Part shown: piece by piece, positions 6,926 to 59,531 of the stretch
How the letters are laid out: each line of letters opens with the position of its first letter
Numbering within the stretch: position 1 is the stretch's first letter
Virus record (IMG/VR): IMGVR_UViG_3300023202_000142
Span: 1-64,000 of that record
Reading direction: 5' to 3' (one strand)
Length of the DNA stretch: 64,000 bases
DNA from: a virus
The notes under the pieces: model-generated
Database searches by the model: none
The model's input: only the letters and a program-made list of their open reading frames with translations
What the model was told of the DNA's origin: nothing
Position numbers and translations under genes: made by a program

Positions 6926-7115
6926 GGATGATCCTCCCGGTGTAATAGGCGGTGACACGCCCGCAGCATCGACACTTCCATGCCCAGCACTCGAAGCCCT
7001 TGGTCAGGCGACTCCACTTCCCCCGGGTGACGTCACCATCAGTGAAGACGGTGACCCGGTCGTGGACGGCCTCGGCGTCGCAGCGTTCACAGTGTCGGGT
7101 GGCTCCAGCGGGCAT
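6918..7115 (-). CDS. small Zn-ribbon protein
   Basis: CERC...CRCC; GGAGGTAGC SD. Confidence 0.6.
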   Translation of the reverse strand: MPAGATRHCERCDAEAVHDRVTVFTDGDVTRGKWSRLTKGFECWAWKCRCCGRVTAYYTGRIIHE

Positions 7116-7135
7116 GTTGCTACCTCCGTTGATGA

Positions 7136-7197
7136 TCGGGCGAGCGGGGTGACTCTCCGAGCAAGGTTAATGTGTGCACGTAGTGCACTGGGTCAAG
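7136..7197 (-). promoter_or_regulatory. phage promoter cassette + UTR hairpin
   Basis: (-) TTGACC-CAGTGCACTACGTGCACA; hairpin loop TCACCCCG. Confidence 0.65.
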
Positions 7198-7203
7198 CGC
7201 ATC

Positions 7204-7446
7204 CTATCGGAAGCGATCGACGAGTTCTTTGGTGCCGCGCCAGCCGGCGTAGACGGTCTGGAGTCGGACCAGGACTGCAGTTACCGCATCGGGCGATTTC
7301 GTCGCCGTCATGTTGAAGACGACGTCACGACCAGCGGCGATGTCGGCCATGACCTTGCGGCCCTTCTCGCGCATGAACTCCGCGGGGCCCTCGACCATCT
7401 CGGTGTCGGCGCAGTAGGTGAATTTTCCAACGGTCTTGTCTTTCAT
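7204..7446 (-). CDS. hypothetical protein
   Basis: ATG 7446 behind AGGAGG. Confidence 0.6.
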   Translation of the reverse strand: MKDKTVGKFTYCADTEMVEGPAEFMREKGRKVMADIAAGRDVVFNMTATKSPDAVTAVLVRLQTVYAGWRGTKELVDRFR

Positions 7447-7492
7447 TGTTGCCTCCTGGGGCAAAGGTAGGTGGGGCGAGTGAGCCGGGTGC

Positions 7493-7666
7493 TCACTTGA
7501 AGGCGTCACGCCAGTTCGGGCCGGCGAGCGCCGCGAGTTTGTTCAATTCCTCGGTCGCCTTCTCGACGAACTCCTCGTCGGTCTCGGATTCCTCCGCGGC
7601 TTTGTTCAGTTCGCAGCGGATGACCTTGGTCTCGACCTTCTCGGTTTTCTTCGCTTTCTTTGCCAT
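7493..7666 (-). CDS. small charged hypothetical protein (57 aa)
   Basis: MAKKAKKTEKVETKVIRCELN...; GGAGGTAGC SD; below ORF-track cutoff. Confidence 0.6.
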   Translation of the reverse strand: MAKKAKKTEKVETKVIRCELNKAAEESETDEEFVEKATEELNKLAALAGPNWRDAFK

Positions 7667-7690
7667 TTGCTACCTCCGGGGTAGGGTGGA

Positions 7691-7751
7691 GCCGGGAGGC
7701 GGGTGACCTCTCCGGCACCTTCATTATGTGCACGCTGTGCACGGCGTCAAG
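7691..7751 (-). promoter_or_regulatory. phage promoter cassette + UTR hairpin
   Basis: (-) TTGACG-CCGTGCACAGCGTGCA-CATAAT; hairpin loop TCACCCG. Confidence 0.7.
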
Positions 7752-7781
7752 GGCATGAAACGGGATTGCGGCACGGCATTC

Positions 7782-8741
7782 GTCTGAGCATCTAACCCAC
7801 TCAGCAGGGCCTGAAACCTCGCTTATGCGGGGCCATTGGGGATCTCGGGCTGAGGGTGTGTCTGAGCATTTAACCTGCTCAGCAGGGTGTGAAACGACGA
7901 GCTGGCTCCGAGGCTTCGGGAGATGGTCTGAGCATCTAACCCGCTCAGCAGGGTGTGAAACATGTGCGTCCTCAGCGCGTGGGCGTGTTGCGGGACATAC
8001 GTCTGAGTATCTAACCCACTCAGCAGGGTGTGAAACTGTCTGGTACCCCGCATCGTCTGAGCATCTAACCCACTCAGCAGGGTGTGAAACCGGTCTCACG
8101 ACTCCTGGAAGGTCGTCTGTCTGAGTATCTAACCCACTCAGTAGGGTGTGAAACGTTGCGGAACGTGGCCACGGGCGCGGTCGATGCTGGGTTCCTTGTC
8201 TGAGTATCTAACCCACTCAGCAGGGTATGAAACTGGGTGCCCAACGCTGCGCGGACTGTGTCTGAGTATCTAACCCACTCAGCAAGGTTTGAAACCCGTG
8301 GCCATGGATGTACCTCAACCTCGACGTCTGAGTATCTAACCCACTCAGTAGGGCCTGAAACGTCAATCAGCGGAAAAACCAAGAAGTCGGATCGATACGG
8401 TCTGAGTATCTAACCCACTCAGGGCTCCCACAACAAGGGTGTCCTCGGGCAGATCCGTGATGTCTGAGCATCTAACCCACTCAGTAGGGTGTGAAACACT
8501 TCTCAATGAATAAGGTGAGTTCACCGACAAGAGACCATTCAGTCTTATTCGATATCGTCTGAGCATCTAACCCGCTCAGCAGGGTATGAAACACTGCGGA
8601 AGCTGGGACCAGACCTGTCAGCAGCCCCAGGGTCTGAGCATCTAACCCGCTCAGCAGGGTATGAAACTCGATCTTGCGTGGTCCCTCTCCGTCCCAGTAG
8701 CCGTCGTCTGAGCATCTAACCCACTCAGCAGGGTGTGAAAC
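7782..8741 (-). CRISPR. CRISPR array, 14 repeats (36 nt, one truncated), 13 spacers of 18-59 nt
   Basis: (-) consensus GTTTCACACCCTGCTGAGTGGGTTAGATGCTCAGAC; repeat starts on + at 7782, 7860, 7926, 8001, 8055, 8119, 8198, 8260, 8326, 8400 (23 nt only), 8462, 8557, 8632, 8706; degenerate remnant at 7749-7761. Confidence 0.97.
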
Positions 8742-8800
8742 AGTACCCCCGGCAAGCACTTGTTGTTCATAGGGATCTCAGCCCCGTTGCGAGAACCTCC

Positions 8801-10516
8801 TCATTCCGCTGCGTCTGAAAAAGTACACTTGTATGAATTCAGCAGGTTACGGGCTGCGTTGAGATCCTGGTCCCATTCGGCACCGCAGTGCTCGCAGGCG
8901 TGCCGGAGCTGGGATGCGGCATCCCAATCGCAGATCTCGCCACAACGATGACATGACATCGTAGTGTAGGCAGGGTCCACCCGTATAATCTCGGTGCCGG
9001 TCTTCGATGCCATTAACTCCAGGGCGTCCCGAAACTCGCCGATGGCAGCAATCTTGCGAAGGTTTCTGGACCTGCCGTGCTGATTCTTGTCCTCCTCGGG
9101 TTCCGGCAACTTCGCAAGCCTCGAAAGGTCGAGATCTTCGAGAACGATTACGCCATGTCGTTCGCACAGCTTCTTGGCCAGGATTCGGTATCGTTCTTTG
9201 CGCCGGTTCAGCGTTTTGCGTGTCTGGTTTTCGTGCCACTGGTGCAGATGGCGATCTTGTTTCCGCCATGCCTCCGCGGCCTCAAACATTTCGCCGTCAC
9301 TCCCAAATCGATTCTCTGACCACTTCCAAACGAACTTGCGCATCCGTTCCTTGGAGCGCCACTTGGATACATGACTGAGATCCGCCTTGAACCACTCAGG
9401 GCTGTCCCCATCGACCCAGTCAGCCAGGACATCTCTGAACTCATTGAATTCGCGGTCCCGGATAGACAGCAGAGAGTCGGCATGGTCGAAGCGATCGACA
9501 AATGCTGCGTCGTCCAGGAGTAACTCGTAGTGGTCATCGCCACAATCCACGTAAGCGAATCTAAGACCACTGAGCCTCTTGCGCCATCCGACATCGATTC
9601 CCGCCACACTGTTCGGTGCCGGGTGGGCAGGGGCATCGAAGGTGTCGGAGACCACAGTGAGTTGGAGTGACCAGCGGTATCTGGTGCCGACCTTCTTGCG
9701 CTTGACCCACGCCCACTTGATGACAGCATCGTCAGGCAGGGGTCTGTGGACATGCAGATCTTTCCAGGTCGACCACACCGGAGTCCTGTTTCCAGGCCCC
9801 TCTGAGCCTACTCGCAATCGCAGTGTGGTCCTGCAGAGCCTCTTGCGCTCCCCGCGCGGCGTGTCGGGATCCCATGCCCTGGGGTCGACAGGTTCGATTT
9901 GGATACGAGTATCCTCGCACCCAAAAAGTTCGTCGACTGACATCCCGCCCTGGATCTGGATACCGACTCGCCCGTTCTCTCCCCTGCCCCGCCACCTGAC
10001 AAATCGCGGGTCTTGTCTGGACTTGGATGCCTGTTTGACGGCGTCCTCGATGAGATTGCGAGTCCCCCAGTGAACCGTGCATTCACTGCGGTACAGTTTC
10101 TGAAGCACTATGAATCTCTCGTCGACAAGATCGACGGCTTCTCCGACATCGTCGCGCTTCAGGGCTTGCTTCTTGGCGGCCCCCCGTCGCTTCCTGGCCG
10201 CTCGAATAGCCGCCTTTATGCCCTTGACCTCCTTGCGCGCAGACTTCGTAACGCTTCGACTGCGCTTGGATGAGTTTTGGTCGGAGATCGATGACCTGAC
10301 CTCGGACAACTCGGCCTCCAGGGCTGAGATCTCTGTGCAAGCATCGGCGTAATCCGTGGAGTGTGCCGCTAGCGTTGCTCGGTACGCCGCCCGCTTGTCG
10401 AGTTCCAGCTCTATGAGCCTGTTCTGATGTCGATGTGCCCTCCAGATGATCTCATCGATCATCTCGGCCTCTTCTGGGCCGAAGGGCAAACCGTACTTGT
10501 AGATCCTGACGCCCAT
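8801..10516 (-). CDS. cas12m: type V CRISPR effector, Cas12m (V-M / C2c4)-like, TnpB-derived RuvC
   Basis: RuvC-I AGIDVGW (D308), RuvC-II IVLEDL (E460), Zn finger C522/C525/C541/C544, RuvC-III WDQDLNAARN (D551); long Lys/Arg-rich helical insert at ~55-125; LYRSEC.VHW, VHRPLPDDA motifs recalled from Cas12m; array 60 bp downstream. Confidence 0.8.
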   Translation of the reverse strand: MGVRIYKYGLPFGPEEAEMIDEIIWRAHRHQNRLIELELDKRAAYRATLAAHSTDYADACTEISALEAELSEVRSSISDQNSSKRSRSVTKSARKEVKGIKAAIRAARKRRGAAKKQALKRDDVGEAVDLVDERFIVLQKLYRSECTVHWGTRNLIEDAVKQASKSRQDPRFVRWRGRGENGRVGIQIQGGMSVDELFGCEDTRIQIEPVDPRAWDPDTPRGERKRLCRTTLRLRVGSEGPGNRTPVWSTWKDLHVHRPLPDDAVIKWAWVKRKKVGTRYRWSLQLTVVSDTFDAPAHPAPNSVAGIDVGWRKRLSGLRFAYVDCGDDHYELLLDDAAFVDRFDHADSLLSIRDREFNEFRDVLADWVDGDSPEWFKADLSHVSKWRSKERMRKFVWKWSENRFGSDGEMFEAAEAWRKQDRHLHQWHENQTRKTLNRRKERYRILAKKLCERHGVIVLEDLDLSRLAKLPEPEEDKNQHGRSRNLRKIAAIGEFRDALELMASKTGTEIIRVDPAYTTMSCHRCGEICDWDAASQLRHACEHCGAEWDQDLNAARNLLNSYKCTFSDAAE

Positions 10517-10530
10517 TTCAGTTCTCCGTG

Positions 10531-10932
10531 TTAGTCGTAGTTGTTCGGGTCTCGGCAGTACTCACAGATGTAGACTGTCGCTGGAAGCCCGTCGGACTGG
10601 TCGCCGCTGAACGATTCGAGCATGAAGTCTGGAACGGTTTCACCGAAGGAGTCGCATGCCGACATCTCGTCACCGTACGCCCGGTTTGAGGCTAATCTAA
10701 GCGCCTCGATCGAGCTGCCGATACGCTTGCCATCAGCGTTGCCGTCGAGGGCCAGCAGTAGCAGGTCTCGGGCAAGAGCCAGTTCGGGCATAAACAGGTC
10801 GACCTCGACGCGGCTTGTGAATCGCTCGATTGTCTGCCATGCGGTTCGCCAGTGCTCTTCATCGACGGCCTCTTGGAGACGGTCGCAGTAGGCGTGAGCG
10901 TTTCTCAGATTGAATCGCGTCGACGTGTCCAT
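10531..10932 (-). CDS. hypothetical protein (immediately upstream of cas12)
   Basis: ATG 10932 behind GGGAGA. Confidence 0.6.
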   Translation of the reverse strand: MDTSTRFNLRNAHAYCDRLQEAVDEEHWRTAWQTIERFTSRVEVDLFMPELALARDLLLLALDGNADGKRIGSSIEALRLASNRAYGDEMSACDSFGETVPDFMLESFSGDQSDGLPATVYICEYCRDPNNYD

Positions 10933-11333
10933 CGGTCTCCCTTGATTCCGCACCCGCCACACTCGGCCTGGACAGCCTCGCGGCCCGGGTTCTCTTCGCT
11001 GTGCTTGGTGATCGTGTGCACGCGGGTCTGCGACCCACATTCGATGCACGGCTTGTAGGTGTTCTTGGTGATCGTTTCGCGTGTGATCTGTGACGTCACT
11101 CGCTCGCGCTCCACTTCGACCTGGAGGGTGCCCTTTCGCGTCCAGCTTGTGATGCGGGAGTCGCAGCTTTCGCAGTCGCATATCACGGTGTCACGATCAG
11201 CTCGGATCACGATTTCTCGCCTCCTGGCCTGGGAGCCGCAGGCACCACATCGTCGGTAGGACCGCTTGCGGATCACCTGAATGCGATGCCCGCTTTCGTT
11301 GATGTAGTCCTTGAGTACACCGTAGTTCAGCAT
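10905..11333 (-). CDS. multi-CxxC Zn-ribbon protein
   Basis: CGAC, CESC, CIEC, CGGC. Confidence 0.6.
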   Translation of the reverse strand: MLNYGVLKDYINESGHRIQVIRKRSYRRCGACGSQARRREIVIRADRDTVICDCESCDSRITSWTRKGTLQVEVERERVTSQITRETITKNTYKPCIECGSQTRVHTITKHSEENPGREAVQAECGGCGIKGDRWTRRRDSI

Positions 11334-11551
11334 CGTTTCCTCTGCTTCATCGCGACGTCGGCCGAGGAGACGCTGTAGCGCTTCCCAGCAGCCTCGCTGC
11401 GGCGCTCCGCATCATCGCGGGCCGTCCACATCGAGTCTACCTCGGAGCCCAGCTCCGTGGTTATGACGACGGCGTAGTGGTAGTTCACAGCATCGGCATC
11501 GACGCTGAGTGGACCATGGGGGCTGTCGACGATGTAAGCGACGGTGGTCAT
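11327..11551 (-). CDS. hypothetical protein
   Basis: ATG 11551 behind GGAG. Confidence 0.55.
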   Translation of the reverse strand: MTTVAYIVDSPHGPLSVDADAVNYHYAVVITTELGSEVDSMWTARDDAERRSEAAGKRYSVSSADVAMKQRKRC

Positions 11552-59458: not shown

Positions 59459-59531
59459 GCGCCCATAGGCCAACAGGAAGAGCCGCGTGGTTCAAACCCC
59501 GTGGGTCCAGGTTCGATCCCTGGTGGGCGCA
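59459..59531 (+). tRNA. tRNA-Leu(CAA), short variable arm, imperfect anticodon stem
   Basis: CGTGG-TTCAAAC-CCCG. Confidence 0.7.

Follow-up and report, generated by a model that had tools for sequence, protein, structure and literature searches.

Type V-M CRISPR systems, called V-U1 in the earlier nomenclature, typically lack adaptation genes. Their effector, Cas12m, is sorted into clades by the state of its RuvC triad: in the classification of Wu et al. (2022), as quoted in PMC10442227, the known range is HEK/HQK, HDD, DED/NED and DED/DND/NED, the last two being clades 3 and 4, and D-E-D is the triad state in two of the four published clades. Of the orthologs tested by Bigelyte et al. (2024; PMC11013384), four had D-E-D, two H-D-D and two N-D-D; they show binding that depends on a protospacer-adjacent motif (PAM) and no cleavage of double-stranded DNA (dsDNA); purified D-E-D MsCas12m cleaves neither target nor collateral substrates, DNA or RNA, and its D274A variant retains processing of the precursor of the CRISPR RNA (crRNA) (PMC11013384). 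Conversion of the H-D-D site of Cas12m2 into D-E-D did not restore cleavage (Omura et al.; PMC10442227). Phage-borne members of the family have hardly been described in print: a preprint of September 2026 (bioRxiv 10.64898/2026.09.14.751636) claims the first case, a D-E-D Cas12m with eight spacers in myxophage MV-1. The locus described here, a cas12m gene and its CRISPR array on the IMG/VR virus record IMGVR_UViG_3300023202_000142, is a well-defined and apparently intact example of this class. The window analyzed is the first 64 kb (64,000 nucleotides, nt) of a single linear record of 185,324 bp (59% G+C, ~90% complete according to CheckV), which by its gene content, including PHROG matches to a tail sheath, a large terminase, a portal and a head-maturation protease, is a tailed, myovirus-like bacterial virus. 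We favor, with a probability of roughly 0.72, the reading that this is a type V-M module on a ~185-kb phage that would act as a binding-only silencer aimed at rival elements.

How does the locus compare with the described systems? It resembles D-E-D type V-M Cas12m (clades 3 and 4; MsCas12m, PMC11013384; PDB chain 23vw_A) in protein size (~570-600 aa), full-length sequence and fold, triad, REC2 coiled-coil insertion and zinc-ribbon TNB, and in having 36-nt repeats that end in GAC, a two-stem pseudoknot, no trans-activating CRISPR RNA (tracrRNA) and no adaptation genes. It differs from them in its carriage by a large phage, its very irregular spacer lengths and its heavily polymorphic repeats, and the protein is ~45% identical or less to the solved Cas12m chains. 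MmCas12m2 and GoCas12m (8hhl, 8hio, 8pm4; PMC10442227, PMC11013384) share the overall architecture, the layout of the crRNA handle and, putatively, the basic REC "roof", but are only ~21% identical, have an H-D-D triad and come from actinobacterial genomes.

The identity of the effector is supported by sequence profiles and by structure prediction. The PADLOC profile Cas12u1 matches over the full length (E 2.3e-111), aligning residues 2-561 with positions 2-529 of its 533. Among solved structures, the best match is 23vw_A (E 1.3e-83, residues 18-559), deposited as "CRISPR-associated DNA-binding protein Cas12m"; GoCas12m (8pm4), "UnCas12m4a" (23vu) and Cas12m2 (8hhl/8hio) come next, the E-values of 8pm4, 23vu and 8hhl lying between 1e-23 and 1e-26. 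Pfam recognizes the C-terminal TNB alone (PF07282, E 2.6e-16, residues 493-558). An AlphaFold2 model built on 32 homologs (mean predicted local distance difference test score, pLDDT, 90.7; predicted template-modeling score, pTM, 0.82) aligns in Foldseek with 8hhl_A (Cas12m2) and 8pm4_A (GoCas12m) at a template-modeling (TM) score of 0.83 over ~610 columns, versus just 0.35-0.46 with Cas12f and TnpB. The model has the bilobed architecture of Cas12m: WED, REC1, an inserted REC2 coiled coil, RuvC with a helical insertion and a TNB zinc ribbon. Its long REC helices (residues 17-145) are the Cas12m-specific coiled-coil insertion; inside them, residues 82-121 include 17 Lys/Arg, and R85 is almost invariant among relatives; this segment is a candidate counterpart of the Arg/Lys-rich roof with R111/R112/R126 in Cas12m2. 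All four cysteines of the CxxC...CxxC zinc ribbon (C522/C525/C541/C544) are present just N-terminal of D551, the 571-codon frame is intact, and each family-invariant residue checked is in place. Sequence and model together identify a type V-M Cas12m of full length, a stronger statement than the "Cas12m-like" of the initial annotation.

Two other identities were considered and rejected. An IS200/IS605-type TnpB is at odds with the NCBIfam scores: guided_TnpB reaches 81 bits against a cut-off of 100, the IS607 TnpB model 58 bits (cut-off 350) and the IS200 TnpB model 41 bits (cut-off 425). What is shared with IS200/IS605 and IS607 TnpB is the RuvC-TNB core, residues ~407-565, the only part that any of the three models covers; the window protein differs in its REC2 insertion and in having a CRISPR array instead of an omegaRNA or transposon ends. 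A Cas12f (V-F) identity fares no better: NCBIfam Cas12f2 scores 36 bits against a cut-off of 450 and, like the TnpB models, matches within residues ~407-565 only, the TM score is ~0.4, the match to PDB Cas12f chains is limited to residues ~495-560, and there is no anti-repeat. One PADLOC model labelled Cas12f, PDLC01692, does match over the full length (E 1.7e-109); because its score and coverage are near-identical to those of the Cas12u1 model, it presumably spans V-U1 sequences as well. In a quick tree, the protein groups with uncharacterised D-E-D metagenomic sequences (best 57% identity), and viral sequences are interleaved with those from metagenome-assembled genomes (MAGs). The protein is nested inside Cas12m, a genuine but ordinary member of the family. 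The initial annotation had proposed an intermediate between TnpB and Cas12m and suggested a comparison of profiles; because full-length sequence, fold, REC insertion and zinc ribbon all match Cas12m, that proposal has to be given up, while the core of the description, a minimal phage-encoded type V system with a Cas12m effector and a same-strand array of 14 repeats, holds.

If the effector is an ordinary Cas12m, does its intact RuvC triad set it apart? D308, E460 and D551 align with the triad of the solved Cas12m chains, among which 23vw and 23vu likewise have D, E, D; MmCas12m has His and Asp at the positions of D308 and E460. The three residues are therefore canonical, as first annotated, and they fall within the known triad range of the family. 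The annotation had gone on to treat the intact triad as the mark of something unusual, on the premise that characterized Cas12m proteins fail to cut because their RuvC is degenerate; this premise is outdated, given the D-E-D orthologs that bind without cutting and the inactive D-E-D revertant of Cas12m2, and the inference drawn from it is correspondingly weak. In a family of 1,973 clusters at 50% identity (E 1e-30 or better), D-E-D is found in 133 of the 174 nearest cluster representatives (76% of close relatives) and in most of the 32 close homologs. An intact triad is the normal state in Cas12m and does not by itself suggest DNA cutting; current views of the family are not overturned by this locus. 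The strong conservation of the D-E-D site does show, at the level of alignments, that the site has some function.

The most serious alternative builds on that site: the protein would be an active RNA-guided nuclease that cuts competitor or host DNA with a canonical triad, unlike the H-D-D forms. All three acidic residues are present, their prevalence among close relatives implies selection on the site, Omura et al. raised DNA hydrolysis by D-E-D clades 3 and 4 as a possibility (PMC10442227), and the MV-1 preprint suggests DNA cutting for MvCas12m (bioRxiv 10.64898/2026.09.14.751636). The experiments point the other way, both those on the four D-E-D orthologs, among them MsCas12m (PMC11013384), and those on the reverted Cas12m2 (PMC10442227); the solved chain nearest to the protein, 23vw, also D, E, D, was deposited as a DNA-binding protein, and the window protein appears to have the Arg/Lys-rich REC insertion that is linked to tight binding. 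Cutting of this kind is unlikely. It might also be that this phage lineage owes to its conserved D-E-D site some nuclease or RNA-trimming activity not shown by the few orthologs assayed so far.

The repeats provide the second line of evidence. On the minus strand, the repeat starts with GTTTCAC and ends with CTCAGAC, and two interleaved helices, between repeat positions 9-11:20-22 and 14-19:29-34, make up a pseudoknot. Counted from the 3' end, these helices pair -28..-26 with -17..-15 and -23..-18 with -8..-3; in the PmCas12m crRNA, the pseudoknot pairs -28..-26 with -17..-15 and -23..-20 with -6..-3. Covariation was scored over 19 loci, the window locus and 18 related ones, aligned in one register anchored at the 3' end. 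Pairing holds in 97.7% of cells, a figure that is somewhat favorable because four loci with one-base-shifted repeats were excluded, and compensatory double changes occur in all nine pairs. None of 500 shuffles reaches the observed values, and sliding the partner leaves 27-44% paired. The window repeats are thus predicted to carry the Cas12m crRNA pseudoknot at the published PmCas12m positions. The structural case rests on covariation, because a single repeat, when folded by minimum free energy, does not outperform shuffled sequences (z = 0).

Within the window array, stem II is intact in 14 of 14 repeats and stem I in 11 of 14, and the pair 19:29 is U-A, U-G or C-G and never C-A. Because stem II is kept everywhere and 19:29 changes only compatibly, the drifted repeats remain under structural constraint. 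Paired changes within one array are also seen, as in the window, in the repeats of a related locus (L014:9884-10650), where CTCAG/CTGAG alternates with CTCGG/CCGAG and TGGC/GCCA with TAGC/GCTA. There is no anti-repeat and no solitary repeat copy outside the array in the genome, and no Rfam family matches in 7000-11500; the lack of a tracrRNA-like anti-repeat, first noted for the window, therefore extends to the whole record. The same is true of the adaptation genes: Pfam models of Cas1, Cas2 and Cas4 have no match in all 185,324 bp.

The array itself is ragged, drifted and yet structurally conserved, and this is the most interesting feature of the locus. Its spacers measure, in order, 38, 39, 59, 26, 38, 30, 26, 43, 28, 18, 39, 30, 42 and 20 nt; just four of the 13 internal ones fall within the 33-41 nt usual in relatives, and Tandem Repeats Finder misses the array because its period is irregular. 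Thirteen of the 14 repeats are clean, but the copies fall into 12 distinct variants. Arrays of relatives have spacers mostly of 35-40 nt with occasional short ones of 12-28 nt; few are as irregular as this one, examples being L018, from the closest viral relative, and L023. Spacers of 12-19 nt stand among normal ones of 35-40 nt in the phage arrays L020/L021/L025, L023, L027, L019 and L036, and the array of L021 includes a run of 15-17 nt units.

Is such an array simply falling apart? The module could be a relic, taken from another element and out of use, with an array that is eroding by deletions and point mutations. The scatter of spacer lengths, the repeat without its 5' third, the terminal repeat stump (Table 1) and the number of repeat variants would fit, as would the failure to find clear targets or to recognize a promoter. 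A relic would not be expected, however, to retain an intact 571-codon frame with all the family-invariant residues checked, or repeat substitutions that spare stem II throughout and stem I in all but three copies and alter 19:29 only compatibly. Furthermore, the guide of Cas12m is ~17-18 nt long; the shortest spacers here, of 18 and 20 nt, are no shorter than that, and similarly short spacers occur in several other phage arrays. Decay is thus quite unlikely. Because the guide is so short and the shortest spacers still accommodate it, the array fits a state in which acquisition has ceased, change comes through deletion and point mutation, and function is kept; this is an inference, and it makes the array a natural test case for array evolution when no adaptation machinery travels along.

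Expression, processing, binding-only action and targets are what we infer by analogy with characterized orthologs, and the silencing module would work as follows. The cas12m gene and the array would be transcribed together from the minus strand, and Cas12m itself would cleave the pre-crRNA close to each repeat's 5' end, with no tracrRNA involved. The mature crRNA would consist of a ~33-nt repeat-derived pseudoknot handle followed by ~17-20 nt of spacer. The complex would find PAM-flanked dsDNA, form an R-loop and remain bound, with the displaced strand held by the RuvC pocket and by the basic coiled coil of REC2, so that transcription or replication would be blocked without cutting. A phage would probably use it against other phages or mobile elements that compete for the same cell, by silencing their essential genes; host genes might be silenced as well. 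Since only the PAM-proximal 17-20 nt are needed, spacers would tolerate trimming and alteration, and an old, ragged array whose repeats have drifted with their base pairs kept would follow from the lack of phage adaptation genes combined with the short guide.

Which elements might be silenced? The one lead comes from the spacer nearest cas12m: the first 21 of its 38 nt equal positions 1406-1426 of a 4,972-bp IMG/VR contig (L053). This site lies in frame within a gene for a large terminase (phrog_2, E 1e-48) that is unrelated to the terminase of the carrier phage. Its 5' flank is CTG, compatible with the YTN PAM of PmCas12m; the other 17 nt of the spacer do not match there. Exact 20-mers of spacers 2, 3, 5 and 8 have no match in IMG/VR, and because these four are blank the background of matches is low. 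The terminase match is nonetheless suggestive only, because the collection searched is very large and this is one match of 21 nt. Further searches were negative: the array against INPHARED phages and PLSDB plasmids, a back-translated spacer 1 peptide against IMG/VR and metagenomes, spacer 13 against metagenomes and spacer 3 against GTDB genomes. Matches of 22-29 nt at 90% between the array and the 33 viral records with relatives cross repeat-spacer borders and were judged to be chance. In the reverse direction, spacers of relatives match the carrier genome over 14-15 nt only, again taken as chance; the arrays of three relatives, compared with the phage collection, gave two blanks and, for Virus Rctr197k, a match to its own record only.

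It is very unlikely that the guides serve as a regulatory device, repressing the phage's own or fixed host genes for temporal control or host takeover: binding-only effectors would suit regulation, and the array gives the impression of an old, fixed set without active acquisition, but the one hint of self-recognition, the first 14 nt of spacer 6 shared with the phage's own genome at 173597, is short, has an ACA flank unlike known Cas12m PAMs and reaches p ~0.05 against shuffles, and was treated as chance, while no spacer matches the carrier genome at 15/18 nt or better and the genome holds no solitary repeat units.

Several observations weigh against a binding-only silencer of rival elements. 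The irregular spacers, the 5'-truncated repeat and the 12 repeat variants could mean decay rather than tolerated drift. No promoter was recognized upstream of cas12m or of the array, and a search of sequencing runs lists no RNA sequencing run that carries the locus, the one carrier listed being probably the source sample. The spacer 1 match covers 21 of 38 nt and could be chance, at an estimated ~0.1-0.2 matches expected per 20-mer; the other spacers found no targets in the phage, plasmid, IMG/VR, metagenome and GTDB searches. Finally, the strong conservation of D-E-D reflects selection for a function that binding-only models do not fully explain, and the D-E-D orthologs assayed are a handful, all studied in vitro or in E. 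coli.

A more specific version of silencing is tentative and, as a whole, rather doubtful: the array would be a long-lived, inherited set of guides rather than an adaptive record, and "hard-wired" Cas12m guides would silence conserved essential genes of rival phages, the large terminase for example. Without Cas1-Cas2, selection would act only on the PAM-proximal ~18 nt and on the base pairs of the repeat; spacers would drift to 18-59 nt, and repeats would diverge to 12 variants with the pseudoknot kept. In either form, the array bears on how a binding-only effector might be used in phage-phage competition, and for genome editing the effector, of only 571 aa and with a crRNA handle that is defined, is a further compact candidate for DNA binding.

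Carriage of Cas12m by phages is common. A profile scan of IMG/VR found relatives on 35 viral contigs, many of them 80-400 kb long; a search of IMG/VR with the single protein as query found none. In nearly all of them a same-strand array follows downstream, its 36-nt repeats ending in GAC. Cas1 was searched for in 33 of the records, 14 of them at least 90% complete, and is present in none. Homologs also occur in MAGs of many phyla, and the surroundings of others include an integrase, a Mu-like Gp48, RusA or type IV csf genes. One such phage gene has been in GenBank since 2016: Virus Rctr197k (KX853510) has a 34%-identical gene, annotated as "similar to transposase", beside an annotated CRISPR. 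This system and that of MV-1 are like the window locus in that a phage encodes a D-E-D Cas12m with an adjacent array, without cas1/2/4, tracrRNA or targets found. They differ in that MvCas12m is a different protein (610 aa, D305/E463/D555) and in that the Rctr197k array has mostly regular spacers of 35-40 nt. Protein P0003, also of 610 aa, was considered as the published MvCas12m and rejected, since its triad positions differ. CasPhi (Cas12j) of huge phages is a more distant parallel: there too, a large phage carries an array and a compact effector of type V, without adaptation genes or tracrRNA, but CasPhi belongs to another subtype (TM below 0.3; PDB sequence match of just E 1e-4 at the RuvC end), and it cuts DNA.

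Some relatives have unusual surroundings. In Rctr197k, a second, unrelated mini-array of four repeats (L001:634-888) lies by a "transposase-like protein" gene ~5 kb upstream of Cas12m. Two Vulcanimicrobiota MAG contigs (L011:1446-4733 and L012) encode a 39%-identical Cas12m homolog with its own array ~3 kb from type IV-like genes for Csf1, Csf3 and a Cas6-like protein; two compact adaptation-less CRISPR systems adjoin each other there, on what may be a plasmid or phage. On a phage-like contig with RusA and MT-A70 genes, a 43%-identical homolog (L068:2396-4105) has no array detected within 2 kb on either side.

Table 1. Coordinates of the features of the cas12m locus (positions in the window)
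Feature	Position	Strand	Basis or remark
cas12m (P0001), type V-M effector	8801..10516	-	Open reading frame of 571 aa; PADLOC, PDB, AlphaFold2, Foldseek
D308 codon, first RuvC acidic residue, motif GIDVGWR	9593..9595	-	Alignment; MmCas12m has His here
E460 codon, second RuvC acidic residue, motif VLED	9137..9139	-	Alignment
D551 codon, third RuvC acidic residue, motif WDQD	8864..8866	-	Alignment
Ribosome-binding site GGAGA, 6 nt before cas12m ATG	10523..10527	-	Sequence reading
TAA stop of the reading frame upstream of cas12m	10531-10533	-	Sequence reading
Gap from cas12m stop to first repeat, short leader, 59 nt	8742..8800	-	No promoter-like site detected
CRISPR array of fourteen 36-nt repeats with 13 internal spacers (18-59 nt)	7782..8741	-	Same strand as cas12m
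Spacer 1, nearest cas12m; first 21 nt equal a site in the L053 terminase gene	8668..8705	-	Exact match
Repeat 5, 5' 13 nt (5' third) lost	8400-8435	-	Sequence reading
Terminal spacer 14, 20 nt	7762..7781	-	Sequence reading
Stump of a 15th repeat, 12 nt, GTTTCATGCCCT	7750..7761	-	Continues into the -35 element of the promoter of the following gene

The immediate neighbors of cas12m match no PHROG family and do not recur beside cas12m in the other loci compared, and this includes the small, acidic open reading frame (ORF) upstream (10531-10791, minus strand), which has a terminal CxxC motif and a stop 14 nt ahead of the cas12m start codon. Because this ORF ends at that stop (Table 1), cas12m is probably co-transcribed with it, and no sigma-70-like promoter was found directly upstream of cas12m. 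A longer call of 216 aa in the frame of the upstream ORF has an N-terminus that looks spurious. Elsewhere in the carrier record there is one second TNB-like match only, and it is sub-threshold. The large terminase of the carrier is at most 34% identical to that of any GenBank phage, with relatives scattered over many hosts.

The palindrome GTGCAC-N3-GTGCAC occurs 11 times in the window, versus 0.2 copies expected (7723-7750, 3135, 7174, 12608, 12964, 14837, 31025, 42268, 52367, 52918 and 54057). One copy, at 7728-7742, separates the -35 (TTGACG) and -10 (CATAAT) elements of a promoter-like site just past the array. Together the copies resemble an operator regulon that spans the phage and is independent of the CRISPR module. 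The window also holds 17 tRNA genes; one of them, in the first tRNA cluster (59459-59531), was assigned by ARAGORN an undetermined identity and a four-base anticodon, caaa, and could be a frameshift-suppressor-like tRNA or a miscall.

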